A DNA stretch of 64,000 nucleotides from Candidatus Pacearchaeota archaeon. Lineage in GTDB: Archaea > Nanobdellota > Nanobdellia > Pacearchaeales > GW2011-AR1. Within the stretch, counting starts at the first letter, position 1, and every line of letters starts with the position of its first letter. The position numbers were made by a program, and so were the translations under genes. The stretch is from positions 2,975-66,974 of the forward strand of contig JAGVXD010000019.1 in NCBI GenBank assembly GCA_018303945.1, given 5' to 3'. Shown here one piece after another: positions 7,453 through 60,375 of this stretch. The notes beneath the pieces were generated by a model that worked only from the letters and a program-made list of their open reading frames with translations, searched no databases and was not told the origin of the DNA.

Positions 7453-7994
7453 GTTTTTTCTATAGAGAGCACTCAGCACTTCATCTGGGAATAAATTCGG
7501 CTTTCCTCCCGCAACTTCTTGCCAGATTAAGCGAGTATAATATTTATCTTTATTCCCGCCTCTCAATGATGCGTGAATTTGATACAAAAAAACGCGACAA
7601 TTACGAACCAGTCAATGAAACGGAGATAATAAAACTTTCAAGAGGAGAAAGATTGGAAAAAAGAATACTGGGATTTATTGATAAAACAAAAAACCTTCGC
7701 TTAATTCAGGTTAAAAGATATGGCTGGATTGAGCCGCACGAAAATCTAAACAGCTATGTTGATTTATATATTCATCATTATAAAAACGGCCAGCTTTATT
7801 CAAACGATGATAAGCCAAGAGAAATAAATGGATATTTTTCAGGAGCAGTCTATAAAACAAAATCTGGGATTTCTCTACCTATTGTAAATTTGAGATATCT
7901 CTACGAAATAAAAAAAGAGAGATTTGAAAAAAAGATGGGAGAAACTGATGCTTTTGATTTGGCAATGATAACTATATACTTGAAATATGGATAA
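7413..7994 (+). CDS. hypothetical protein
   Basis: 193-aa ORF. Its stop lies inside an R1 hairpin repeat. Confidence 0.5.
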   Translation: MCSYREIGYTTTLGFFYREHSALHLGINSAFLPQLLARLSEYNIYLYSRLSMMREFDTKKRDNYEPVNETEIIKLSRGERLEKRILGFIDKTKNLRLIQVKRYGWIEPHENLNSYVDLYIHHYKNGQLYSNDDKPREINGYFSGAVYKTKSGISLPIVNLRYLYEIKKERFEKKMGETDAFDLAMITIYLKYG

Positions 7995-8082
7995 CTGCAT
8001 TGCTTAGATGACAACGAGTGGCAGTTATTCAGACAGAGAACTGCGTACAAATATGTAATCTAACCTGCGCAGTTCTCTATAT
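7990..8082. repeat. hairpin repeat, family R1 copy 2 (two consecutive hairpins)
   Basis: GATAACTGC..GCAGTTAT followed by CAGAGAACTGCG..CGCAGTTCTCT. Homologous to 60284-60375. Confidence 0.7.
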
Positions 8083-10228: not shown

Positions 10229-10381
10229 GATCCCGTAGCTCAGTTGGTTAGAGCGCTGCTCTGATATCAAAAAGTCCTTGCGTTTACCGCACCCTAAAGG
10301 GCGCGGTTTATTTGGGACTTTTGGCAGAAAAAATCAATGTCGGAAAGGCAGAGGTCCCAAGTTCAATTCTTGGCGGGATCA
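10229..10381 (+). tRNA. tRNA-Ile(GAU) with a 79-nt intron (10267..10345) at the canonical 37/38 position
   Basis: Hand-folded. Acceptor GATCCCG/CGGGATC, D arm GCTC/GAGC, anticodon stem CTGCT/GGCAG, loop CTGATA|A, T arm CCAAG-TTCAATT-CTTGG. Confidence 0.8.
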
Positions 10382-12521: not shown

Positions 12522-12647
12522 GGCTCCGTAGCTCAGCCCGGTTAGAGTACTGGACTCTTACATTTAAAGGCGTAAGTCTTAAATGGCTCATGATTGATAT
12601 ACAATCGAGAAATCCAGGTGTCGCGGGTTCAAATCCCGTCGGGGCCA
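12522..12647 (+). tRNA. tRNA-Lys(CUU) with a 51-nt intron (12561..12611)
   Basis: Acceptor GGCTCCG/CGGGGCC, anticodon stem CTGGA/TCCAG, loop CTCTTA|A, T arm GCGGG-TTCAAAT-CCCGT. Confidence 0.8.
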
Positions 12648-14285: not shown

Positions 14286-14326
14286 CACTTGATTATAAAG
14301 TTCGCTTTTCATTTTATCTCCTAAAC

Positions 14327-14758
14327 TCACGGCTTTTGCGCGGCGGCTACGCCGCTAATGCAAACTACCCGACCATACTCGCCCGAGTCAGCCAAATCAT
14401 CGTCGTTCGAGTTGATATTGAGGTTCCAGTTGAGGAACAACCTCGAAAGTCCTGAATTTCTAGTCCATAATTGTCTGTTCTTACCAGGAACATCAGTATC
14501 ATACACTTTTGTTGGCAAACCTGTTTTAGCATCCATTTCAGAGGAATTAATGTAAGATCCATGTTTGCTGTTAAGAATGGGTGCTTCAAAATAAAGAGGA
14601 GTATCAAGAAGTTCTTTCTTTAAATTAAATGCTAGTTTATTAGGCGCCTTATTTTCTTTCCTCAATGAAAGTCCATATAAAGGTAGCACATAAGCAGTAT
14701 TTTCAAGGCTTGCCAGCGCCTCTAAATTGATCATAGAAATCCAAAGCGAGCCAACCAT
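14327..14758 (-). CDS. unknown protein B1 (paralog of 17156..17557)
   Basis: Shares LENTAYVLPLYGLSLRKENKAPNKLAFNLKKELL and NRQLWTRNSGLSRL...GRVVCISG.AAAQKP with B2. The ATG at 14758 is preferred. Confidence 0.55.
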   Translation of the reverse strand: MVGSLWISMINLEALASLENTAYVLPLYGLSLRKENKAPNKLAFNLKKELLDTPLYFEAPILNSKHGSYINSSEMDAKTGLPTKVYDTDVPGKNRQLWTRNSGLSRLFLNWNLNINSNDDDLADSGEYGRVVCISGVAAAQKP

Positions 14759-15230
14759 TAGGATTTCCTTTCGATCTCCATACAAGTGAAGAATCTTCAT
14801 ATTGATTTTGCAAAGGCAATTTATTTCCTTTTAAGATAGCTTCTAACTCTGCTTGTGTTGCTGTTCTAATATTCTTAGGTTGCAATATTTGATTTGCAAC
14901 TATAACTGCGTATGGGTTAGAGCCCTCTACAACTTTCTTTGTAGAATTCCACTTAAGTATCTTAAGAGCGCTTGCGTCATTATAATCTACTTTTACTACC
15001 CGCTCATATTCTTTCAAGAAATCTTTTCCAAAATCTCCTGATAGAAAGAAAGCTGAGGCGAACGGAATCTGGGGAATTGGAGTATTTGAAGCAGGGGATA
15101 CATCAGGATTTGTTCCAGCATTCTTATCAGGTTCTGGTTCTTTATTTCCTTTACCTTTATCTGGCTTCTCTTGACTTACTCTTTGAGCATAGCGTTCTGC
15201 CCATTGTTTATACAGATCAAAGTTGCTCAT
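14703..15230 (-). CDS. unknown protein A1 (paralog of 17529..18017)
   Basis: Shares MSNFDLYKQWAERYAQRVSQ, a P/K/G-rich linker and a conserved C-terminal domain with A2. Confidence 0.65.
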   Translation of the reverse strand: MSNFDLYKQWAERYAQRVSQEKPDKGKGNKEPEPDKNAGTNPDVSPASNTPIPQIPFASAFFLSGDFGKDFLKEYERVVKVDYNDASALKILKWNSTKKVVEGSNPYAVIVANQILQPKNIRTATQAELEAILKGNKLPLQNQYEDSSLVWRSKGNPNGWLALDFYDQFRGAGKP

Positions 15231-15368: not shown

Positions 15369-17159
15369 TCATGCTGTAGCTCCTGCAATTTTAGGGCTTT
15401 GCTTATAATAACTTGAAACAAAGGAAACCATGCTTCGTGAAAGATCCTCATCGCCTTTTACGTTAATAACTGGAACTCCCAGATCCTTTAGATACGTTGA
15501 AAACGCTGTGTCGCCACCAATTTGAATATGTGCATAATCAGCAGTTCGTATCTTTTGTTCAAAACTAGTTTTTTGAGAGCCATTCATGCTAAATTCTCCA
15601 TCTGAAATAGACAAGACTAAAGCACTATCTTCGATTTCTTTCTCCAAGCCCTCGCTATCAAAGGTAGTAGTTCCTGAGGGTTTTGTTAGCAAGGATTTGG
15701 CGACTAATTCTGATTTTCCACGCACTGCTGATTCTCCTGAGAATCCCAGAACGCTACTTTCAATGTAAGGAGCTACGCCTTGGCGTTCAAAGAAGTTATC
15801 AATGCCAAAATATCCTTTTAATGCGAAATGATATTTACTATTATCTCCCCATGGGATATATGAAGTATTTCCTACTTCTTTTCCATTATCTGAATTAAGA
15901 GCCATACTTCCTGATCTATCCATAAGTGCAAGCTTGAAGTTAGGAAACTGGTGAGGATGTTTCTTGTAAGCAACAGGGTGTTCAACATGATGTTTAGTTG
16001 TCTTTAAACCCATCTCTCCATCAGATTTGAATCCTACTCCTCTGAACTTAAACTTACGTTCATCTTCCTTAACAAATCGTCTCCCATAGCGTACAAGAGG
16101 CATTGCTTGACTTGCTGAGTAATGAGTAGTTTCTACAGGAATTTCCTTAGAAATTTTCTTATAGAGGTCATATAGTTGCTCTTGTAAATCTCTATGTGCA
16201 AGCGGTGCTTCCCCTCCCTGATATCTGCCAAAGGCAATTTCCTGCCTATTAGAAGGCATTTTCATTTCTCGATCAAAAGGATTCTGCTCCTCTGAATTCT
16301 CATCGCCCTCACTTGATCCAAACATTCTTTGTTGCGGTGGCTGATCTTCCAGCAATTTACCTAGATGAACAGCAAAAGAATATCCGAGATTGCTCCATGT
16401 TTTCGCTCTTTGGCGTATATCTGTAGGATCAAACAGCTTTTGGAATCCAGATTTTTCATGTAACTTAAATATCTTCTCTTCTTGGGTAACTGTTCTCATT
16501 TCTCCGAGAAATTGTCCGACTGCTTCTTTTACTTCTGGTTTATCACCAAAGAATCTCTTAAGAAGACTATAGTCTGCTGCTCTTCCTGCAAGCATAAGGT
16601 TAACTTTGACAAAAGCCTCGTAAAAAAGATTATATTTTCCATCCTGCCCATTCACAAGCCCGTGGTTATTCCAAAAAAGAGTTTGGCCTGCAAAATCGGT
16701 ATGTCTCCTGCAATTAATATTATCAAGTACATCTTCAAAAGCATTAGTAACATACTGCTCAAGACCGTTTTTGCCTATCTCTTGCAGTCCTCGTGTTACT
16801 TTGTCCTTGATTCTCTCGTGAGTTTCTAAATCATAGGGGCAACCATATCGTTCTCCTACCTTATTTTCTCTGTGTCCTGCTTCATGGTCGAGTACATCCT
16901 GTCCCGTTTTAAGCAAGGGATCTTTAATCCCTCTAAGAGATGCAAAACGCTTGCTTTCCTCATCAGGCACTAAATCCAAATCTCTTCCATAAGAAAGACT
17001 AATTTCTTTCCAATCTGTTGTAATATGGCCTGCAAAAGTATTTCCAGCAACTTCATCAACATTTAATCTAATTCCAATTAATCCGATCTTGTTTTTTTGC
17101 TGTTCAAGTGCTTGTTTGATGTTTTGAAGTTCGCTTTTCATTTTATCTCCTAAACTCAC
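15369..17159 (-). CDS. vWA-domain protein with N-terminal HExxH metallopeptidase-like motif (MoxR partner; CobT-like architecture)
   Basis: 596 aa with HEAGH at about residue 84 and the MIDAS motif DRSGS (ALMDRSGSM) in the C-terminal third. GTG start. Confidence 0.8.
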   Translation of the reverse strand: MSLGDKMKSELQNIKQALEQQKNKIGLIGIRLNVDEVAGNTFAGHITTDWKEISLSYGRDLDLVPDEESKRFASLRGIKDPLLKTGQDVLDHEAGHRENKVGERYGCPYDLETHERIKDKVTRGLQEIGKNGLEQYVTNAFEDVLDNINCRRHTDFAGQTLFWNNHGLVNGQDGKYNLFYEAFVKVNLMLAGRAADYSLLKRFFGDKPEVKEAVGQFLGEMRTVTQEEKIFKLHEKSGFQKLFDPTDIRQRAKTWSNLGYSFAVHLGKLLEDQPPQQRMFGSSEGDENSEEQNPFDREMKMPSNRQEIAFGRYQGGEAPLAHRDLQEQLYDLYKKISKEIPVETTHYSASQAMPLVRYGRRFVKEDERKFKFRGVGFKSDGEMGLKTTKHHVEHPVAYKKHPHQFPNFKLALMDRSGSMALNSDNGKEVGNTSYIPWGDNSKYHFALKGYFGIDNFFERQGVAPYIESSVLGFSGESAVRGKSELVAKSLLTKPSGTTTFDSEGLEKEIEDSALVLSISDGEFSMNGSQKTSFEQKIRTADYAHIQIGGDTAFSTYLKDLGVPVINVKGDEDLSRSMVSFVSSYYKQSPKIAGATA

Positions 17160-17557
17160 GGCTTTTGCGCGGCGGCTGCGCCGCTAATGCAAACTACCCG
17201 ACCAGCCTCATACGAGCCGGCGAGAACCCCGCCCCTAGCGAAGAGATCCAAGTCCCTGATGAGGTACAACCTCGAAAGTCCTGAATTTCTAGTCCATAAT
17301 TGTCTGTTCCCTGGAACAGCATTCTCATAGACTTTCTTCGGTAGTCCAGTATTGGTATCAACTTCTCCAGCTTTAACATATAATCCGTCTTTACTCATAA
17401 GTATATGAGCTTCAAAATAAAGAGGAGTATAAAGAAGTTCTTTCTTTAAATTAAATGCTAGTTTATTAGGCGCCTTATTTTCTTTCCTCAATGAAAGTCC
17501 ATATAAAGGTAGCACATAAGCAGTATTTTCAAGCGAGCCAACTATTAGGATCTGCAT
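17156..17557 (-). CDS. unknown protein B2
   Basis: Paralog of B1. It overlaps the A2 3' end by 29 nt and the vWA gene start by 4 nt. Confidence 0.55.
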   Translation of the reverse strand: MQILIVGSLENTAYVLPLYGLSLRKENKAPNKLAFNLKKELLYTPLYFEAHILMSKDGLYVKAGEVDTNTGLPKKVYENAVPGNRQLWTRNSGLSRLYLIRDLDLFARGGVLAGSYEAGRVVCISGAAAAQKP

Positions 17558-18017
17558 TAGATCTCCACACGAGAGAAGATTCTACATAATGATTTCCTTT
17601 GATAGGTAATGTATTTGCCTGTGCAATTTTCTCTAACTCTGCTTGTGTAGCAGTTCTGATTCCACTTTTCTCAAGAATCATGTTAGAAAGAACAACTGCA
17701 AAAGGATTTGAGCCCGTTACTTTTTGATTGGCATCATCCCAATTAAGAACTTGCAAAGCTGAGGCATTATTATAATCTTTCTTAACTCTTGCGTTATATT
17801 CCTTTAGAAAGTCTTTTCCAAATTGTCCTTTCAAAAATGAAGCACTCCCAAAAGTATGGGGAACAACAAGAGGAGTGGTTGCATTTGAATCAGGTTGACT
17901 TCCAGCATCTGGCTTAGAATCTGCTTTTTTTCCTTTTCCACCTTTGTCTGGTTGTCCTTGACTTACTCTTTGAGCATAGCGTTCTGCCCATTGCTTGTAA
18001 AGGTCGAAATTACTCAT
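17529..18017 (-). CDS. unknown protein A2
   Basis: Paralog of A1. It starts 2 nt after the MoxR stop. Confidence 0.65.
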   Translation of the reverse strand: MSNFDLYKQWAERYAQRVSQGQPDKGGKGKKADSKPDAGSQPDSNATTPLVVPHTFGSASFLKGQFGKDFLKEYNARVKKDYNNASALQVLNWDDANQKVTGSNPFAVVLSNMILEKSGIRTATQAELEKIAQANTLPIKGNHYVESSLVWRSNADPNSWLA

Positions 18018-21257: not shown

Positions 21258-21380
21258 ATATAATAAGATTACTCAAATATTGCGTTCTTCCGCTACATAC
21301 GATATTTACAGAAGCCGCTCACCAAACTGAAATTAAAAAATAAGTGGCGATTTGGGCTAATTTCTGTCTTTTATGAGAAA

Positions 21381-21526
21381 AGTTGCCGAAGGCAAAAGAA
21401 ATTACCTCTTAATCTGCTGTTGCTTGACCTGAAGCGAAGCGGAAGGCACGAGTGGAGCAAGAAGCGACCTCGTGAGTGAAAGTTTTGTTCTCAGCCGATT
21501 TCGTAGCGTAGTTGCTGAAGAGAAAC
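21381..21526. repeat. structured element, upstream arm U1 (divergent type)
   Basis: Contains CCTCTTAATCTGCTGTT, GCGAAGC, the hairpin CACGAG..CTCGTG, and GTTCTCAGCCGATTTCG.AGCGTAGTTGCTGAAGAGAAA. Confidence 0.75.
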
Positions 21527-21540
21527 ATATTTAATATTAG
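21527..21540 (+). promoter_or_regulatory. TATA-like box about 20-30 nt upstream of the cassette ORF1 ATG
   Basis: ATATTTAATATTAG. The same spacing is seen for ORF2 and ORF3 and for the peptide gene on the - strand. Confidence 0.35.
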
Positions 21541-21556
21541 GCAAATTATCAATATT

Positions 21557-21922
21557 ATGAAATCCAAGATAAAATCTTTAAGCAGGAATGAGCAACGGAC
21601 AATTATTGTTTTTGAAATGAACAATCAAATTATAAAAATTATTGAAAAAACATTTAAGAAATTAAAGTCCGATTTTGAATTGTCAGATTATAAGAAAAAA
21701 TATGGAGATAAAATTATTGACAATTCTTGGGAGTTAAATAAGAAAGATGAGGACTTTAATTTTAGTCTAGTTGCGAAAAAAGATTTTGTGAAATTGAAAC
21801 TAAAAGCAAGCTTGGATTTCGTAAACAAGTTTTTGAAAATTCTGGAAAATGATACAGAATTTTCCGAATTATTGCCTAAGATTAAAGCAAAATTAGAAAG
21901 GCGAAAATTCAAATTTCTCTAA
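21557..21922 (+). CDS. cassette ORF1, Lys-rich hypothetical protein (121 aa from ATG 21557)
   Basis: ORF enclosed by the U1 and D1 arms. Its last codons and stop pair with U1. Confidence 0.5.
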   Translation: MKSKIKSLSRNEQRTIIVFEMNNQIIKIIEKTFKKLKSDFELSDYKKKYGDKIIDNSWELNKKDEDFNFSLVAKKDFVKLKLKASLDFVNKFLKILENDTEFSELLPKIKAKLERRKFKFL

Positions 21923-22260
21923 AGCAATTTCGTTAAAGCTTTGTTAGACAAAGTTGCATAGCAATTTTGTGAGTTTTCTCTGTGTGGCTTTAACGAAGCG
22001 AGAAATAACAAGGCTGAGAATTGCTCACAGCCAAAAGGACAGGAAGAGGGGAAACTAAAACTCTATGTCGGAAATTGGGGGGAAGGTGAGCAACCGCAGG
22101 CAAAACTTTCATTTTGGGCAACGTCGCGATTAAGGAAAGTTTTTTCTTCCTCGAGGAGCGAAGCGACGAAGAAGTTTTCAAAAATCCGTCATCAAGGGCG
22201 AAGCTCCATAAATTCAAATGTTTTAGAGAGGGAACTTTTATTTTCATTTATTAACTTTAA
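21918..22260. repeat. structured element, downstream arm D1
   Basis: AGCAATTTCGTTAAAGC...GCTTTAACGAAGCGAGAAATAACAAGGCTGAGAATTGC followed by a GCGAAGC-containing tail. Confidence 0.75.
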
Positions 22261-36953: not shown

Positions 36954-37010
36954 TTTCTTCTGTTTGTCAGTATAGAATGAAAATTACAGCGTCTATCGGT
37001 TCAAATTAAG

Positions 37011-37146
37011 AGAACATTTTAGGATAAAATGAATAAGCTGCCGTTTAGCAGTGATTAAGTGACCCTTTAGGGCAAGAGTGGGCTTCGAAAGACCCTCTTG
37101 TGTTTAGATTCGTTCTCAGCCGATTTCTCGCGTAATTGCTAAAACT
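37011..37146. repeat. structured element, upstream arm U2
   Basis: GCCGTTTAGCAGTGATTAAG, CCCTTTAGGG, CAAGAGTGGGCTTCGAAAGACCCTCTTG and GTTCTCAGCCGATTTCTCGCGTAATTGCT. Confidence 0.8.
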
Positions 37147-37170
37147 ATTAAGAGGTAACAAATAGAAAGA

Positions 37171-37178
37171 TTTATAAA
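37171..37178 (+). promoter_or_regulatory. TATA-like box (TTTATAAA) 22 nt upstream of the ORF2 ATG
   Basis: Position and composition only. Confidence 0.35.
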
Positions 37179-37199
37179 GAACGAATTTTGTAGATTTTT

Positions 37200-37484
37200 A
37201 TGCAAACAAACAGAGTATACGTGATTCCAGAAGCAAAAGTCGGCGACGAAAGAAAAACTGTCGTGATGAGAAGCCAATTTGGGGCAAGCCTTGCTTTAGG
37301 AATTTCAAAAGATGTAACTGCTGCTTATGAAGTGGAAGCTAGAAATTGTTCTCATCAAGAATTGTATACTGCAGTTACTAAGGTTGTAAAAAGAAGCAAG
37401 ATTACAGAGTTAGAGGCTTCTCTTCAAGAATTTTGCAATGTTTTTAGTATGTCGGTAACAAAATTAGTCCCAACACAAGCATAA
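37200..37484 (+). CDS. cassette ORF2, hypothetical protein (94 aa)
   Basis: ORF enclosed by U2 and D2. No similarity to ORF1 or ORF3 by eye. Confidence 0.55.
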   Translation: MQTNRVYVIPEAKVGDERKTVVMRSQFGASLALGISKDVTAAYEVEARNCSHQELYTAVTKVVKRSKITELEASLQEFCNVFSMSVTKLVPTQA

Positions 37485-37500
37485 TCTTTCTATTATTTTA

Positions 37501-37728
37501 TTCATCAGCAATTTCGTTTAAGCAAGCGATTGTGCGTTAACGAAGTTCGCACCCAGCGGTTAAGCGGAGCAAGAAATAACAAGGCTGAGAATTGCAAGCC
37601 GAAAGGGGCAAGAGTTTACAGGCAATAATTAATTTGTTACTATGAAAACTCTGAAGGGAAAGGGGCTTGTTTGTCTAGGGGATTTGCAACCCGAGTGCAA
37701 CGAGGGCAAAGCAAAAGTTTGGTTAATC
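37501..37728. repeat. structured element, downstream arm D2
   Basis: About 93 nt are identical to D3 (CAGCAATTTCGTTTAAGC...GGCTGAGAATTGCAA). The distal part is conserved and ends in GGTTAATC. Confidence 0.85.
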
Positions 37729-37809
37729 TATCAGGCTAAAAGAACTTTCAAAGGCAATTATTATCTAAAAATTTTTTGAAAGTTACAAAAAATTATGCTT
37801 CTTACAAAA

Positions 37810-37945
37810 AGAACATTATTGGAAATAATGAATAATTTTCCTTTTAGCAGTGATTAGGCGAGTTGCTTGCAACCTCGAGCTAGCCACAAAGGCTCTCGAG
37901 TTACAAAATCTGTGCGAAATCTTTTCCTGAGTGTAATTTCTAAGC
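37810..37945. repeat. orphan upstream-arm variant U2-prime
   Basis: Same 5' motif (AGAACATT..TTTAGCAGTGATTAGG). The central hairpin is replaced by CTCGAG-CTAGCCACAAAGGCT-CTCGAG. Confidence 0.65.
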
Positions 37946-38028
37946 TATCTTTATTTAGTAAGAAGTTATTGGGTGGGAAATATTCACAGGGCGCGAGGTT
38001 TTTTCGTAAGGGGGCTGACTGTTTTCAG

Positions 38029-38280
38029 TTATTTCTCATAAATATTCTTTCTATGCCCTGCTTTTAAAATATGCAAAATTAGATTAGTTCTGTCAACGTC
38101 AATAATCAGCCTATAGTCTCCAACCCTTAGCTTAAATCCTTCAATATCTTCAAGATGCTCAAGGAAATGAAAAGGATTTAATTTGCATTGTTGTAGTTTG
38201 TCCCAAATTCTCTCTTTATCGTCTTTTTCTAGCTTATTGAGGAAATCAGTAGCTTTCTTATCAAATTTAAGTTGGTACAT
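38029..38280 (-). CDS. RelE/ParE-family toxin
   Basis: 83 aa. KLRVGDYRLIIDVDRTNLILHILKAGHRKNIY is the typical RelE C-terminus. Confidence 0.8.
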   Translation of the reverse strand: MYQLKFDKKATDFLNKLEKDDKERIWDKLQQCKLNPFHFLEHLEDIEGFKLRVGDYRLIIDVDRTNLILHILKAGHRKNIYEK

Positions 38281-38283
38281 CTT

Positions 38284-38520
38284 TTACAAGCCAAGAATCT
38301 TCTTAGCTTCATCTTCTGTATAGAACTCACCTTTCTTAATTCTTTCTCTTGCTTCTTTTATTTCAAGAATAGTTTTTTGGCTAAGCTTAGGCTCTTTTTC
38401 AGTCAATTTAGCCAAATAGATAAGTTTTCTAACCAATTCATCATAGCTTTCGCTTTTGTATTGCTTAAAATTATCAAGTTCCTGCTTTGTCGTTTGATTA
38501 AGTCTTATTGTTGTTTCCAT
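38284..38520 (-). CDS. antitoxin partner of the RelE-like toxin
   Basis: 78-aa ORF ending 3 nt upstream of the toxin start. Confidence 0.6.
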   Translation of the reverse strand: METTIRLNQTTKQELDNFKQYKSESYDELVRKLIYLAKLTEKEPKLSQKTILEIKEARERIKKGEFYTEDEAKKILGL

Positions 38521-38625
38521 ATACTATTGTATACATATGTAGATTTTATAAACCTTTTGATTAATCTTTTATTAGGGAGATTGTTTGGGGGGGCGGGTTT
38601 GCGAAATATTTATATATTCTTTTAA

Positions 38626-39012
38626 ACAACAAACTATAGGGTAAATAAGATACTTGGAGTTATTCTTTTAATCATAGGTTTTATAGGATTATTTTTCATA
38701 TATCAAGGCAATTCTTACATATTTATTGGAGTTATTCTTTTAATCATAGGTTTTATAGGATTATTTTTATTAGTTCGGGGTTCTGGTAGTAAGATTAAAG
38801 GTATTACTCTTTTAATTATTGGATTATTAGGAATGGGCTGGATAGGTCTAGGTTTGTTAATGGCGCAGGCTTTCGCGCAGGCTTTCTCTCCAATGTCTAC
38901 TCAAGAATATTTAGTTCCGGGACTATGGTTTTTATTGCCTTTAGCTATATTTATTTATGGTATAAAGTTATTATTATCTAAGCAAGACAGTATTCAAAAA
39001 CCCTCTCCCTAA
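38626..39012 (+). pseudogene. membrane-protein reading frame without canonical start, containing an in-frame 72-nt-period duplication
   Basis: Open frame with 4-5 hydrophobic helices. There is no ATG, GTG or TTG in frame until late. A 43-nt repeat occurs at 38654-38696 and 38726-38768. Confidence 0.3.
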
Positions 39013-39202: not shown

Positions 39203-39361
39203 TTACGAATTATGTGATATGTGGGTTACATTATCTCTCGTCTGTCTCCAGCATTCTTCAACAGGATTAAGGTCTGATGCTCCTGTAGGGAAGAACATAT
39301 AATCGATTTTGTTTTCTTTAAGCCAACTCATCACAAAATTATTTTTAATTTCATCTTCATA
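39203..39361 (-). mobile_element. IS630/Tc1-mariner-family transposase C-terminal remnant
   Basis: Translates to ...SWLKENKIDYMFFPTGASDLNPVEECWRQTRDNV, which matches the third catalytic-acid region (SPxLNPxExxW). No N-terminal part is present. Confidence 0.55.
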
Positions 39362-40039: not shown

Positions 40040-40180
40040 ACTTAATTATGTGTAAACACATATTTAAACATTTCTACTTTTGATTCTGTTAACTTAAGGC
40101 CCCTCATAGGATCTATCTCTTTTATGCAACTCCAGAGGAATCGAGATACCTCAAGAATTTGCAATTCTTGATGACACCCA

Positions 40181-40309
40181 AGAACACAGGGTTCTTGGTG
40201 TTTGCCGTTTACTTGTGATTAAGCGTCCCTTTGGGGCAAGAGCGGGCTTCGAAAGACCCTCTTGTGCTTAGATTCGTTCTCAGCCGATTTCGAGCGTAAT
40301 TGCTGAAAC
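40181..40309. repeat. structured element, upstream arm U3
   Basis: GCCGTTTACTTGTGATTAAG, CCCTTTGGGG, CAAGAGCGGGCTTCGAAAGACCCTCTTG and GTTCTCAGCCGATTTCGAGCGTAATTGCTGAAAC. Confidence 0.85.
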
Positions 40310-40333
40310 TATGGAGAAGTAACAAGAGAAATG

Positions 40334-40341
40334 TTTAAATA
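40334..40341 (+). promoter_or_regulatory. TATA-like box (TTTAAATA) 22 nt upstream of the ORF3 ATG
   Basis: Position and composition only. Confidence 0.35.
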
Positions 40342-40362
40342 TTCCATAAATTATAAGACTAT

Positions 40363-40632
40363 ATGGCTGATAGATTAAAGGTATATGCAATTTATGGGAA
40401 AGGACAAACTAATGAGGCCTCAAAGTCACTTTGTGATTATAGTGTAGGGCATACTGAAGAAGAGGCAGTTGAAAATGCTATAAACTTAAATCCTCGTTTG
40501 AGATTATTACACGATCTAAATGCTACTCAGATTGCCGTTAGAGGATTTAGAATTTCAGCCGAATCATTAGAGCAAGAAGCCAGAAATAATTTTCATGCGG
40601 CAGTTCATCGTGGTCGTGGCACTTGGTACTAA
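40363..40632 (+). CDS. cassette ORF3, hypothetical protein (89 aa)
   Basis: ORF enclosed by U3 and D3. Confidence 0.55.
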   Translation: MADRLKVYAIYGKGQTNEASKSLCDYSVGHTEEEAVENAINLNPRLRLLHDLNATQIAVRGFRISAESLEQEARNNFHAAVHRGRGTWY

Positions 40633-40640
40633 TTTTATTT

Positions 40641-40879
40641 GTTTCAGCAATTTCGTTTAAGCAAGCGATTGTGCGTTAACGAAGTTCGCACCCAGCGGTT
40701 AAGCGGAGCAAGAAATAACAAGGCTGAGAATTGCAACCGAAAGGGAAAGATTTTACGGGCAATAGTTTATTTATTATTATGTAAAATCAGGAGGGAGTGG
40801 GGAAACTCAAAGCATATTAGGGGATAGCAACCCGAATAAAACGAAGTGGAACGAGGGCAAAGAAGAAGTTTGGTTAATC
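40641..40879. repeat. structured element, downstream arm D3
   Basis: It starts with GTTTCAGCAATT, the perfect complement of 40298-40309, contains GGCTGAGAA, the complement of 40277-40285, and ends in GGTTAATC. Confidence 0.85.
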
Positions 40880-46312: not shown

Positions 46313-46360
46313 CTTGTCAAGAACCAACCACTAAAGTAGGTGGCGTGTTTGGTTCTTGAT
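46313..46360. repeat. hairpin repeat, family R2 copy 1 (TCAAGAACCAA...TTGGTTCTTGA)
   Basis: Lies 70 nt after the valS stop. A near-identical copy is at 49511-49557. Confidence 0.75.
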
Positions 46361-49510: not shown

Positions 49511-49557
49511 CTTGTCAAGAACCACCCACTAAAATAGGTAGCGTGTTTGGTTCTTGA
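49511..49557. repeat. hairpin repeat, family R2 copy 2
   Basis: Lies 10 nt after the prf1 stop. A second hairpin, GACTTCAAAAATGC..GCATTTTTGAAGTC, follows at about 49558-49593. Confidence 0.75.
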
Positions 49558-60140: not shown

Positions 60141-60283
60141 TTATCTTTACCTCCTTTCAATTATGTACTAAACAACAAAAAACTAGTATTTATATTTGAC
60201 TGTGGTAAAAAATATGGGTTATTCACATAAGAGTTAAGAAAAGGAAGATACATATGAAATTATGAGAAGTTTGCAATATTATG

Positions 60284-60375
60284 GATAACTAAATTGTTTA
60301 TACCTCGCAGAAGAGCAGTTATCCAGACAGAGAACTGTGTAGGTTATAGCTCACATTGTGTGCAGTTCTCTGTAT
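60284..60375. repeat. hairpin repeat, family R1 copy 3 (two hairpins)
   Basis: GATAACT..AGTTATC followed by CAGAGAACTGTG..TGCAGTTCTCTG. Confidence 0.7.

Follow-up and report, generated by a model that had tools for sequence, protein, structure and literature searches.

Correia, ERIC, and BOX elements are single compact units, mostly palindromes of 100–200 nucleotides (nt) inserted beside genes, and the pdif (XerC/D) modules of Acinetobacter plasmids rely on 28-bp double-stranded DNA recombinase sites without secondary structure. What is conserved in hok is the toxin gene together with its antisense RNA. The attC sites of integrons are hairpins of ~55–140 nt with RYYYAAC/GTTRRRY cores, used by the IntI integrase. 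Each is a single site between successive open reading frames (ORFs) and folds as a single strand, and integron arrays are often rich in toxin-antitoxin genes (PMC9668308). Here we describe elements found in 64,000 nt of a Candidatus Pacearchaeota archaeon (GenBank assembly GCA_018303945.1, contig JAGVXD010000019.1, positions 2,975 to 66,974 of the forward strand; this whole stretch is called the window, and coordinates refer to it). An upstream (U) arm and a downstream (D) arm flank a single gene and pair with each other across it. It is established that such two-part elements, under structural selection, bracket single, independently promoted genes in Pacearchaeota-like archaea. The bracket corresponds to neither an RNA family nor a mobile element described so far, and it looks like a novel form of packaging for genes that can be swapped.

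Three full elements lie in the window, E1 (~21.33–22.25 kb), E2, and E3, along with one orphan U arm, all on the + strand. The U arms measure ~160 nt and the D arms ~230–300 nt. In E2, U2 begins at 36987, the cargo gene lies at 37200–37484, and D2 ends at 37728. Element E3 (40152–40879) consists of U3 (40152–40309), a TATA box (40334–40341), an ORF of 89 amino acids (aa; 40363–40632), and D3 (40641–40879). Element E1 (21333–22245) has a divergent type of arm, with U1 at 21358–21525, an ORF of 121 aa at 21557–21922, and D1 from 21914 to ~22187, followed by a T-rich tail; a candidate TATA box precedes U1 (21333–21344) and a second one precedes the ORF (21530–21537). A first-pass annotation, made from the sequence alone, had regarded E2 as the second copy of a bracket element, and it can now be placed beside E3 and E1. 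The ~93 identical nt that it reported between D2 and D3 correspond to a longest exact run of 93 nt (TCAGCAATTTCG...GGCTGAGAATTGCAA, 37505–37597 = 40644–40736), both D2 (37721–37728) and D3 (40872–40879) finish in GGTTAATC, the conserved distal end that it had seen, and the enclosed 94-aa and 89-aa proteins, which it found dissimilar by eye, gave no BLASTP alignment at E ≤ 100. The window contains exactly three occurrences each of the invariant blocks GTTCTCAGCCGATTTC (U) and AACAAGGCTGAGAATTGC (D), compared with means of 0.56 and 0.14 in shuffled sequence, and the observed arm-motif counts were reached by none of 100 shuffles.

Relatives were sought on metagenome contigs with a 20-mer from the D invariant block (GAAAT-AACAA-GGCTGAGAAT). 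This gave nine loci, five of which are true members in that other arm motifs are also present: L034 (two elements), L036 (= L039), L040, and L041. Two further relatives are L049, found through a homolog of the cargo, and L027/L028, a strain variant of the E2 region. In all, relatives lie on about five other contigs from groundwater. In a search of one genome per species with an 18-mer from the D core, 26 single chance matches were found in unrelated bacteria, none accompanied by U or D partner motifs. Scans of viral contigs and BLAST searches against phage and plasmid records returned nothing similar to the arms, and full-text literature searches turned up no description of such elements.

The main structural feature, absent from the first-pass annotation, is that U pairs with D across the gene, forming as many as six helices, of which two are invariant (GTTCTCAGCC/GGCTGAGAAT and ATTTC/GAAAT) and at least three others covary. 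Co-folding the U and D arms of each window element produced GTTCTCAGCC/GGCTGAGAAT (Hc), ATTTC/GAAAT (Hb), and a helix between the gene-proximal ends (Ha). These three were predicted independently by RNAalifold on eight elements in which the ORF had been replaced by a tetraloop, together with He, a helix local to D that encloses an inner hairpin, so that the core contains a three-way junction. In this core, 93.5% of the cells are paired, against 30–45% when the partners are slid by 1–3 columns; 12 pairs show double-sided changes, and the observed score was reached in 0 of 500 shuffles. Hc and Hb never vary, while Ha, He, and the inner hairpin covary. The 5' strands of Hc and Hb form the invariant U block GTTCTCAGCC-G-ATTTC (37112–37127 in E2), identical in all full elements, which pairs with 37573–37592. 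There, the invariant D block GAAAT-AACAA-GGCTGAGAAT, from which the search key for relatives was taken, carries the 3' strands of both helices, Hb and then Hc, separated by a 5-nt bulge.

On the gene-proximal side, Ha continues into complementarity that is specific to the cargo. In E2 (37134–37172), the 5' strand AATTGCT is followed by the distal strand AATAGAAAGATT (37161–37172), a 12-nt perfect complement of 37483–37494; the 3' strands (37483–37513) are the distal AATCTTTCTATT and AGCAATT (37507–37513). Ha of E3 is a perfect 12-bp helix (AATTGCTGAAAC/GTTTCAGCAATT). In L039 and L034, the start region of the ORF itself pairs with its end, which in L039 means that the first codons pair with the last codons of the cargo. 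Folding energies reflect this matching, as the gene-proximal U/D ends average −24.7 kcal/mol in cognate and −17.3 kcal/mol in non-cognate combinations. He (37515–37566, predicted by RNAalifold) reads CGTTTAA/TTAAGCG in E2 and encloses the hairpin GTGCG...CGCAC; it is replaced by GTTAAAGC/GCTTTAAC in E1 and by GTTTAACCTT/AAGGTTAAAC in L041.

Two helices lie outside the core. The outermost closes GATTAAG (37053–37059) on TTAATC (37723–37728) and becomes GATTAGCC/GGTTAATC in the strain variant, with covariation that, as read from the sequences, is modest to weak. Hf connects the 10–12 nt immediately 5' of Hc with a block shortly ahead of the D end and exists in four perfectly complementary versions of 10–11 nt: GAAAGTTTT/AAAACTTTC, TTGAGATTTC/GAAATCTCAA, ACTTTTGCTTT/AAAGCAAAAGT, and GTTTAGATTC/GAATCTAAAC. 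The first of these is the matched Hf of E1, where 21478–21486 pairs with 22102–22110. The Hf 5' strand of U2 (GTTTAGATTC, 37102–37111) has no partner in D2, where the alignment of D arms and the table of Hf versions place the 3' strand at 37707–37718 (CAAAGCAAAAGT); its perfect complement GAATCTAAAC is found in the D arms of L034 and L040. The remainder of the 3' domain of D2 (37593–37728) comprises a mini-hairpin CCGAAAGG, a hairpin AGAGTTT/AAACTCT (37611–37652) that is TTTTCAC/GTGAAAA in the strain variant, a purine-rich block, and the terminal GGTTAATC. The types of pair in the RNAalifold set also indicate the strand that folds: since there are 27 G-U cells and 2 A-C cells, the sense strand is the folding strand, and explanations based on double-stranded DNA or the antisense strand are therefore ruled out.

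The U arm begins with a three-way junction (P1, P1b, and Hp0), followed by a conserved linker ending in GATTAAG, the hairpins Hp1 and Hp2, and the D-pairing strands; all five of its local helices show compensatory changes. In U2, the 5' domain (36987–37040) is formed by P1 (CAGC/GCTG), P1b (GTTC/GAAC, 36999–37002 with 37012–37015), and Hp0 (CATTTTA/TAAAATG, 37015–37031). These three covary between arms and are predicted by single-sequence folding in most of them, and hairpins likewise appear at matching places in most arms by single-sequence folding. Hp1 (CCC-TTTA-GGG) and Hp2 (CAAGAG...CTCTTG with an inner stem) occupy 37063–37100. The latter is the hairpin for which the first-pass annotation had proposed positional equivalence and compensatory replacement, and both proposals hold. 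A covariance model places the hairpins of 11 arms, the divergent E1 type included, at the same model positions; 10 of the 13 aligned Hp1–Hp2 pairs have double-sided changes, and the observed covariation score was reached in 0 of 500 shuffles. The versions of the Hp2 stem (CAAGAG/CTCTTG, CTCGAG/CTCGAG, CACGAG/CTCGTG, CTCTTG/CAAGAG, and CTCGGG/CCCGAG) are all perfectly paired across 10–11 arms, with only 68% pairing in non-cognate strand combinations. By hand alignment, 261 of 265 pairs in the local helices are Watson-Crick, with 5–10 stem versions per helix; cognate strands are 98–100% paired, and swapping 3' strands between arms lowers this to 60–73%. It should be noted that these figures come from hand segmentation and covariance-model alignment, which were used in place of a MAFFT alignment of whole U arms; with RNAalifold, the latter recovered one hairpin only, because length differences misalign the stems.

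Three single-base differences are clustered in U2 (37031, 37034, and 37037) in comparison with the near-identical population contigs L031 and L060, and they look like a micro gene-conversion tract. Population variation in the island amounted to too little to be used (6 variable sites in 4.1 kb).

The orphan U arm (37789–37945, + strand) follows D2. A further arm had been noted there by eye, and a U-arm profile indeed matches 37790–37950 (E = 9e-31), although its start (37789) lies ~20 nt earlier than the one first given; the same is true of U2, which begins at 36987. The common 5' motif is present as described (AGAACATT at 37810 and TTTAGCAGTGATTAGG at 37843). Its helices are P1 (AAAATTAT/ATAATTTT), P1b (TTCTT/AAGAA), and Hp0 (CATTATT/AATAATG), then GATTAGG, Hp1 (GTTGC/GCAAC), and Hp2, which is CTCGAG-CTAGCCACAAAGGCT-CTCGAG (37874–37900) where U2 and U3 have CAAGAG-(T/C)GGGCTTCGAAAGACC-CTCTTG. 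From 37912 onward, the Hc, Hb, and Ha strands are degenerate, and GTGCGAAATCTTTTCC stands in place of GTTCTCAGCCGATTTC, so the D-pairing segments are lost. Both known orphans, this one and that of L040, lie directly 3' of a complete element and combine perfect local hairpins with degenerate Hc/Hb/Ha strands. As first reported, the window orphan faces a reversed toxin-antitoxin pair. This consists of a gene for a ParE/RelE-fold toxin (PF05016, E = 1.4e-7; 38029–38280, − strand) and a DUF7557 antitoxin-like gene (38284–38520, − strand), both assigned with Pfam, and it occupies the place expected for the cargo and D arm of the orphan. Just past this pair, TTGATTAATC (38558–38567) looks like the D-arm end TTTGGTTAATC; it may be a stump of the lost D arm, in which case the toxin-antitoxin pair took the place of the cargo.

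The suggestion that arms mark the boundaries of cassettes gains from three kinds of evidence: the same gene lies between different arms in two near-identical strains, arm halves form reciprocal chimeras, and cargo elsewhere is unrelated. Together with the second copies and the equivalent hairpins, this supports the interpretation offered in the first pass. In the strain variant L027/L028, the E2 gene is 95.8% identical at the nucleotide level, with 8 synonymous and 4 non-synonymous codon differences, from which we conclude that the gene is real and recently shared. The arms of the two strains are only 67% (U), 69% (D), and 54% (orphan) identical, and the hairpins have all been re-paired with new sequences; because this divergence is far above the synonymous one, the arms were replaced rather than mutated in place. 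In E2 and E3, the U-side strand of Hf comes from one lineage and the D-side strand from another, and the second element of L034 (L034b) has the reciprocal combination. E2 is therefore a chimera, as GTTTAGATTC has its complement in the D arms of L034 and L040 and none in D2. Since the chimeric Hf strands lie on either side of them, the exchange points must be in the invariant core or in the cargo. We regard it as established that arms and cargo are exchanged as modules.

The cargo is unrelated between elements and is always oriented like the arms. The gene of E2 (37200–37484, + strand) is an ORFan of 94 aa; among 5.8 billion proteins, the E2 and E3 products were matched only within the same species, and neither belongs to a Pfam or NCBIfam family. 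The relatives carry an FcoT-like thioesterase, a polysaccharide deacetylase, small membrane proteins, and an unknown 105-aa protein. None of the cargo genes encodes a transposase, reverse transcriptase, or nuclease. The 121-aa product of E1 belongs to a family of at least 35 Pacearchaeota and Nanoarchaeota proteins. One homolog (L049/L050, 84% identical) has full arms of the E1 type; in eight other neighborhoods of this gene, arms were not detected by profile, and several keep stumps of Ha and He at the gene ends. The gene family has a different neighborhood in every genome examined (L042–L056), which suggests that the E1-type gene itself moves. Its protein has a confidently predicted alpha/beta fold (pLDDT 88.8), for which no relative was found in PDB, Pfam, or NCBIfam. 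The idea that it is the own protein of the element was rejected, as profile comparison showed no similarity between it and the products of E2 or E3.

Promoter-like signals frame both the arms and the genes. The TATA box TTTATAAA of E2 (37171–37178, + strand) starts 29 nt before the ATG and would be the promoter of the cargo gene itself, producing a leaderless mRNA. A TATA box ~27–30 nt before the ATG, without a Shine-Dalgarno sequence, is present in 8 of the 9 cargo genes listed, and in the ninth (L034b) the distance is similar by eye. Host genes in the window typically have a TATA-like box 24–32 nt 5' of the ATG, also without a Shine-Dalgarno sequence, so that leaderless mRNAs seem to be the norm in this host. 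Another TATA-like box, of the AAAATAAG type, starts roughly 21–25 nt 5' of P1 in most arms. Most D arms are followed by a covarying hairpin, usually accompanied by a T run. In E2, this hairpin (AACTTTCAAA/TTTGAAAGTT, 37743–37784, + strand) has a run of six T in its loop and is a candidate transcript end; in arrays, it is also the spacer before the next U. In addition, L039 (~1055–1085) and L034 (~2480–2510) have in common a GC-rich hairpin, GGCGCGTTCGGCGCTTCGCGCC, with a T run, ~60–70 nt 3' of their D arms. This hairpin could be one more conserved part or mark an insertion site that both elements have in common.

We propose that the elements are modular gene cassettes in which the two arms flank one complete gene with a leaderless start and its own promoter. 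On the sense strand, the arms form their covarying hairpins and zip across the gene into a long, branched, interrupted duplex, in the order GATTAAG/TTAATC, Hf, Hc, Hb, and Ha from the outside in, with He as a side branch and the gene in the terminal loop. The structure and its covariation, the strand that folds, the modular exchange, and the variety of the cargo are shown by the present analysis. The folded form is most likely RNA. We infer this from the gene-locked orientation, the promoter-like and terminator-like frames, the sense-specific G-U pairs, and an architecture richer than that of any recombination site. Two transcripts are predicted from these signals: a long one, comprising U, gene, and D, from the foot of U to the hairpin and T run after D, and a shorter leaderless mRNA from the internal promoter that would carry D as its 3' untranslated region. 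The paired arms, either in cis or with U acting on D in trans, could then control the processing, stability, or translation of the enclosed gene. With both strands of Hc and Hb invariant, any U would fit any D, and the Hc/Hb core could be the point at which arms and cargo recombine, which would explain the chimeras. Taken as a whole, that is, as modular cassettes whose two-part sense-strand structure, most likely RNA, acts on the expression of the enclosed gene, this reading has in our judgment an even chance of being correct.

Several observations weigh against it. G-U pairs are nearly absent from the local U hairpins (3 of 265), which is unusual for RNA, and the complete invariance of both Hc strands would also suit a protein recognition or recombination site. 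The U arms taken alone are no more stable than their shuffles (z from +0.1 to −1.2 in sense, and similar in antisense). The folding-energy check suggested in the first pass was thus uninformative for single arms, but it did succeed with the combined arms: U+D composites without the ORF are stable in five of six elements (z from −3.9 to −6.9), E2 being the exception at −1.3. The case for structure rests on covariation and on this combined stability, not on single-arm energy. Given the internal promoter, the translated mRNA would probably be without U, and a cis role of U needs the longer transcript or else action in trans. Hf cannot form in E2, E3, or L034b, so it is either dispensable or these copies are impaired. 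Finally, the choice between RNA and single-stranded DNA depends on sequence signals rather than on transcripts, and the sample is small (~10 independent elements from closely related organisms).

The strongest rival is that the arms form a single-stranded DNA recombination platform, like attC or the CTX phage attachment site, with Hc/Hb and the extrahelical AACAA as the site of a dedicated recombinase. It accounts equally well for the invariant core and the chimeras, as arms and cargo are exchanged as modules and the Hc/Hb strands stay constant while all other helices covary, as would be expected of a protein recognition site. The almost purely Watson-Crick hairpins fit as well, as do the ever-changing neighborhoods of the E1 gene family and an island rich in toxin-antitoxin genes that also contains a transposase fragment, as integron arrays often are (PMC9668308). 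Yet no IntI-type recombinase was found in a scan of 20 window ORFs or in the gene tables for 20 kb of flanking sequence, and no integrase or recombinase in those of the related loci. The arms cannot be read as one attC hairpin site, since they are of two different kinds and Ha and Hf link the U and D of the same gene, not a D with the next U. Core sites of the attC type are missing too; GTTAAGC does occur within the 3' strand of He, but, as read from the sequence, its partner there is CGTTTAA rather than RYYYAAC. At least ten helices over ~450 nt go far beyond any known recombination site, and the arms are framed by promoter-like and terminator-like signals. Neither empty sites nor circle junctions nor target duplications were observed, searches for empty sites with identical neighbor proteins having led only to the same island, and homologous recombination between the invariant blocks of 16–24 nt could alone yield the chimeras. 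We consider this platform rather unlikely.

A bolder form of mobility would make the arms the working part of a new gene-mobility or processing system of DPANN archaea, whose catalytic or enzyme-guiding fold excises, circularizes, or swaps promoter and gene at Hc/Hb. If true, this would be a functional analog of the integron with two arms spanning the cargo; we mention it as a speculative proposal, and an unlikely one.

To a similarly low degree, we entertain a split trans-acting non-coding RNA of ~450 nt, possibly in two pieces, that has a job of its own and whose Ha loop tolerates the insertion of whole passenger genes, in the manner of ORFs hosted by introns or variable loops. The promoter-like box of U, separate from that of the gene, is in keeping with such an RNA, as are the complex structure with its invariant junction nucleotides and the behavior of Ha, which resembles an ordinary covarying hairpin stem. 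Both orphan U arms, which keep their 5' hairpins intact without the D pairing, also suggest that the 5' domain of U is independent. Against this, there is no gene-free copy among the ~10 elements, several divergent copies per genome would be unusual for a housekeeping RNA, and in many genomes the arms next to genes of the E1 family have decayed to stumps, which marks them as dispensable. The pairing moreover reaches cargo-specific sequence, coding sequence in L039, so the structure is tuned to the gene.

Selfish repeats resembling miniature inverted-repeat transposable elements (MITEs), with no role in the host, inverted blocks as transposon ends, and merely incidental hairpins, would explain multiple copies in a patchy distribution, the orphan and decayed copies, and the adjoining DDE transposase fragment. 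The inverted blocks are not terminal, however, but lie inside conserved boundaries that extend ~125 nt (U) and ~135 nt (D) beyond them, no target-site duplication was recognized at these boundaries, the U and D sequences differ, and compensatory changes in at least eight helices denote selection on pairing rather than on sequence. Such repeats are a very improbable explanation. Least credible of all, and close to being dismissed, is an archaeal splicing or processing stem with a bulge-helix-bulge for the tRNA splicing endonuclease, from which the gene loop would be cut out and circularized and U ligated to D: pairing of the 5' and 3' flanks around a gene-sized loop recalls archaeal rRNA processing stems, but Ha is a continuous helix, and a U–D scan for the motif (3-nt bulges, 4-bp helix) gave 5–17 matches against 8–14 in shuffled sequence, none at a conserved position.

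Other known families were considered and set aside. With Rfam 15, only tRNAs passed the gathering score in the window, and permissive scans of the three elements and seven related loci gave scattered, unrelated sub-threshold matches, none of which recurred. A group I or II intron was rejected, as there was no Rfam intron match at E ≤ 10, the elements are intergenic, and inspection by eye places the bulge of Hp2 on its 5' strand and reveals no AGC triad. An IS200/IS605 or TnpB/IscB guide RNA locus does not agree with a cargo of thioesterase, deacetylase, membrane proteins, and ORFans that includes no transposase or nuclease. Also dismissed by eye were a hammerhead (CUGAGAA without G8), a K-turn at the AACAA bulge, an H/ACA-like Hp2, and a resemblance to the P/Q/R/S elements of group I introns (AAUUGC...GAAAGGGG).

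The window as a whole is low in G+C and contains intron-bearing tRNA genes, and its genes recur on numerous contigs from groundwater of the Rifle aquifer and other sites. The tRNA genes at 10229–10381 and 12522–12647 have introns, one with an insertion of 80 nt, and are detected by Rfam and missed by ARAGORN. A 62-nt repeat family (960–1021, 7986–8047, and 60280–60341) with an internal inverted repeat, GGATAACTGC...GCAGTTATCC, and copies 61–76% identical may be another structured intergenic element. Two hairpin repeats of 47 nt (46313–46359 and 49511–49557; TCAAGAACCA...TGGTTCTTGA), 94% identical and 3.2 kb apart, bracket the region 46.3–49.5 kb. Paralogous stretches of ~0.9 kb at 14293–15230 and 17122–18017 (74–84% identity, ~2.8 kb apart) look like a tandem duplication of reverse-strand genes. 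Within the island, a perfect 43-nt direct repeat, 72 nt apart, is found among small membrane ORFs (38654–38768 and 39203–39334), and a 43-aa fragment of a DDE_3 transposase lies between the two toxin-antitoxin pairs.

The genomes of DPANN archaea are tiny, and the ways in which accessory genes are gained, regulated, and exchanged in them are poorly known. A structure of ~450 nt and about ten helices that surrounds single genes and is exchanged as a module would represent either a new class of large structured RNA connected with gene expression in archaea with leaderless mRNAs or a new cassette system for horizontal gene flow. Its invariant blocks and covarying helices provide a searchable signature, and it is itself a testable substrate with which the protein or activity that recognizes it could be identified.

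Among described systems, the mRNAs of hok-type small proteins are alike in that their ends pair over a long range and can lock translation; in hok, the gene is conserved with its antisense RNA, and here the flanks are conserved, the gene varies, and no antisense partner is known. GOLLD, ROOL, OLE, and group I/II introns are likewise multi-branched structures of several hundred nt, and peripheral loops of introns host ORFs; the present elements differ in lacking an Rfam match, a host gene, and exons and in carrying accessory cargo instead of homing endonucleases or reverse transcriptases. Correia, ERIC, and BOX elements are also multi-copy and intergenic, fold when transcribed, can carry promoters, and affect neighboring mRNAs, but they are not a matched pair of unlike, co-varying arms enclosing a gene. 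The pdif modules resemble the cassettes in that discrete genes, often for toxin-antitoxin systems, lie between inverted conserved sites and are shuffled as modules; the inverted blocks described here sit inside large covarying folded arms. In archaeal and bacterial rRNA operons, the 5' and 3' flanks of a gene-sized segment pair over tens of bp. Those processing stems flank rRNA, once per operon, and contain bulge-helix-bulge (archaea) or RNase III (bacteria) sites, whereas our elements have a protein gene and an internal promoter in the loop, no bulge-helix-bulge, and extra hairpin domains. Integron cassettes, including those of archaeal integrons, share with them short accessory genes in the same orientation, conserved elements defined by structure and not by sequence, and toxin-antitoxin genes nearby (PMC9668308). 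The elements reported here, in which neither attC cores nor an integrase was seen, differ from integrons in having two arms (~160 nt and 230–300 nt) with at least ten helices, pairing across the gene, and a promoter of its own for each gene.

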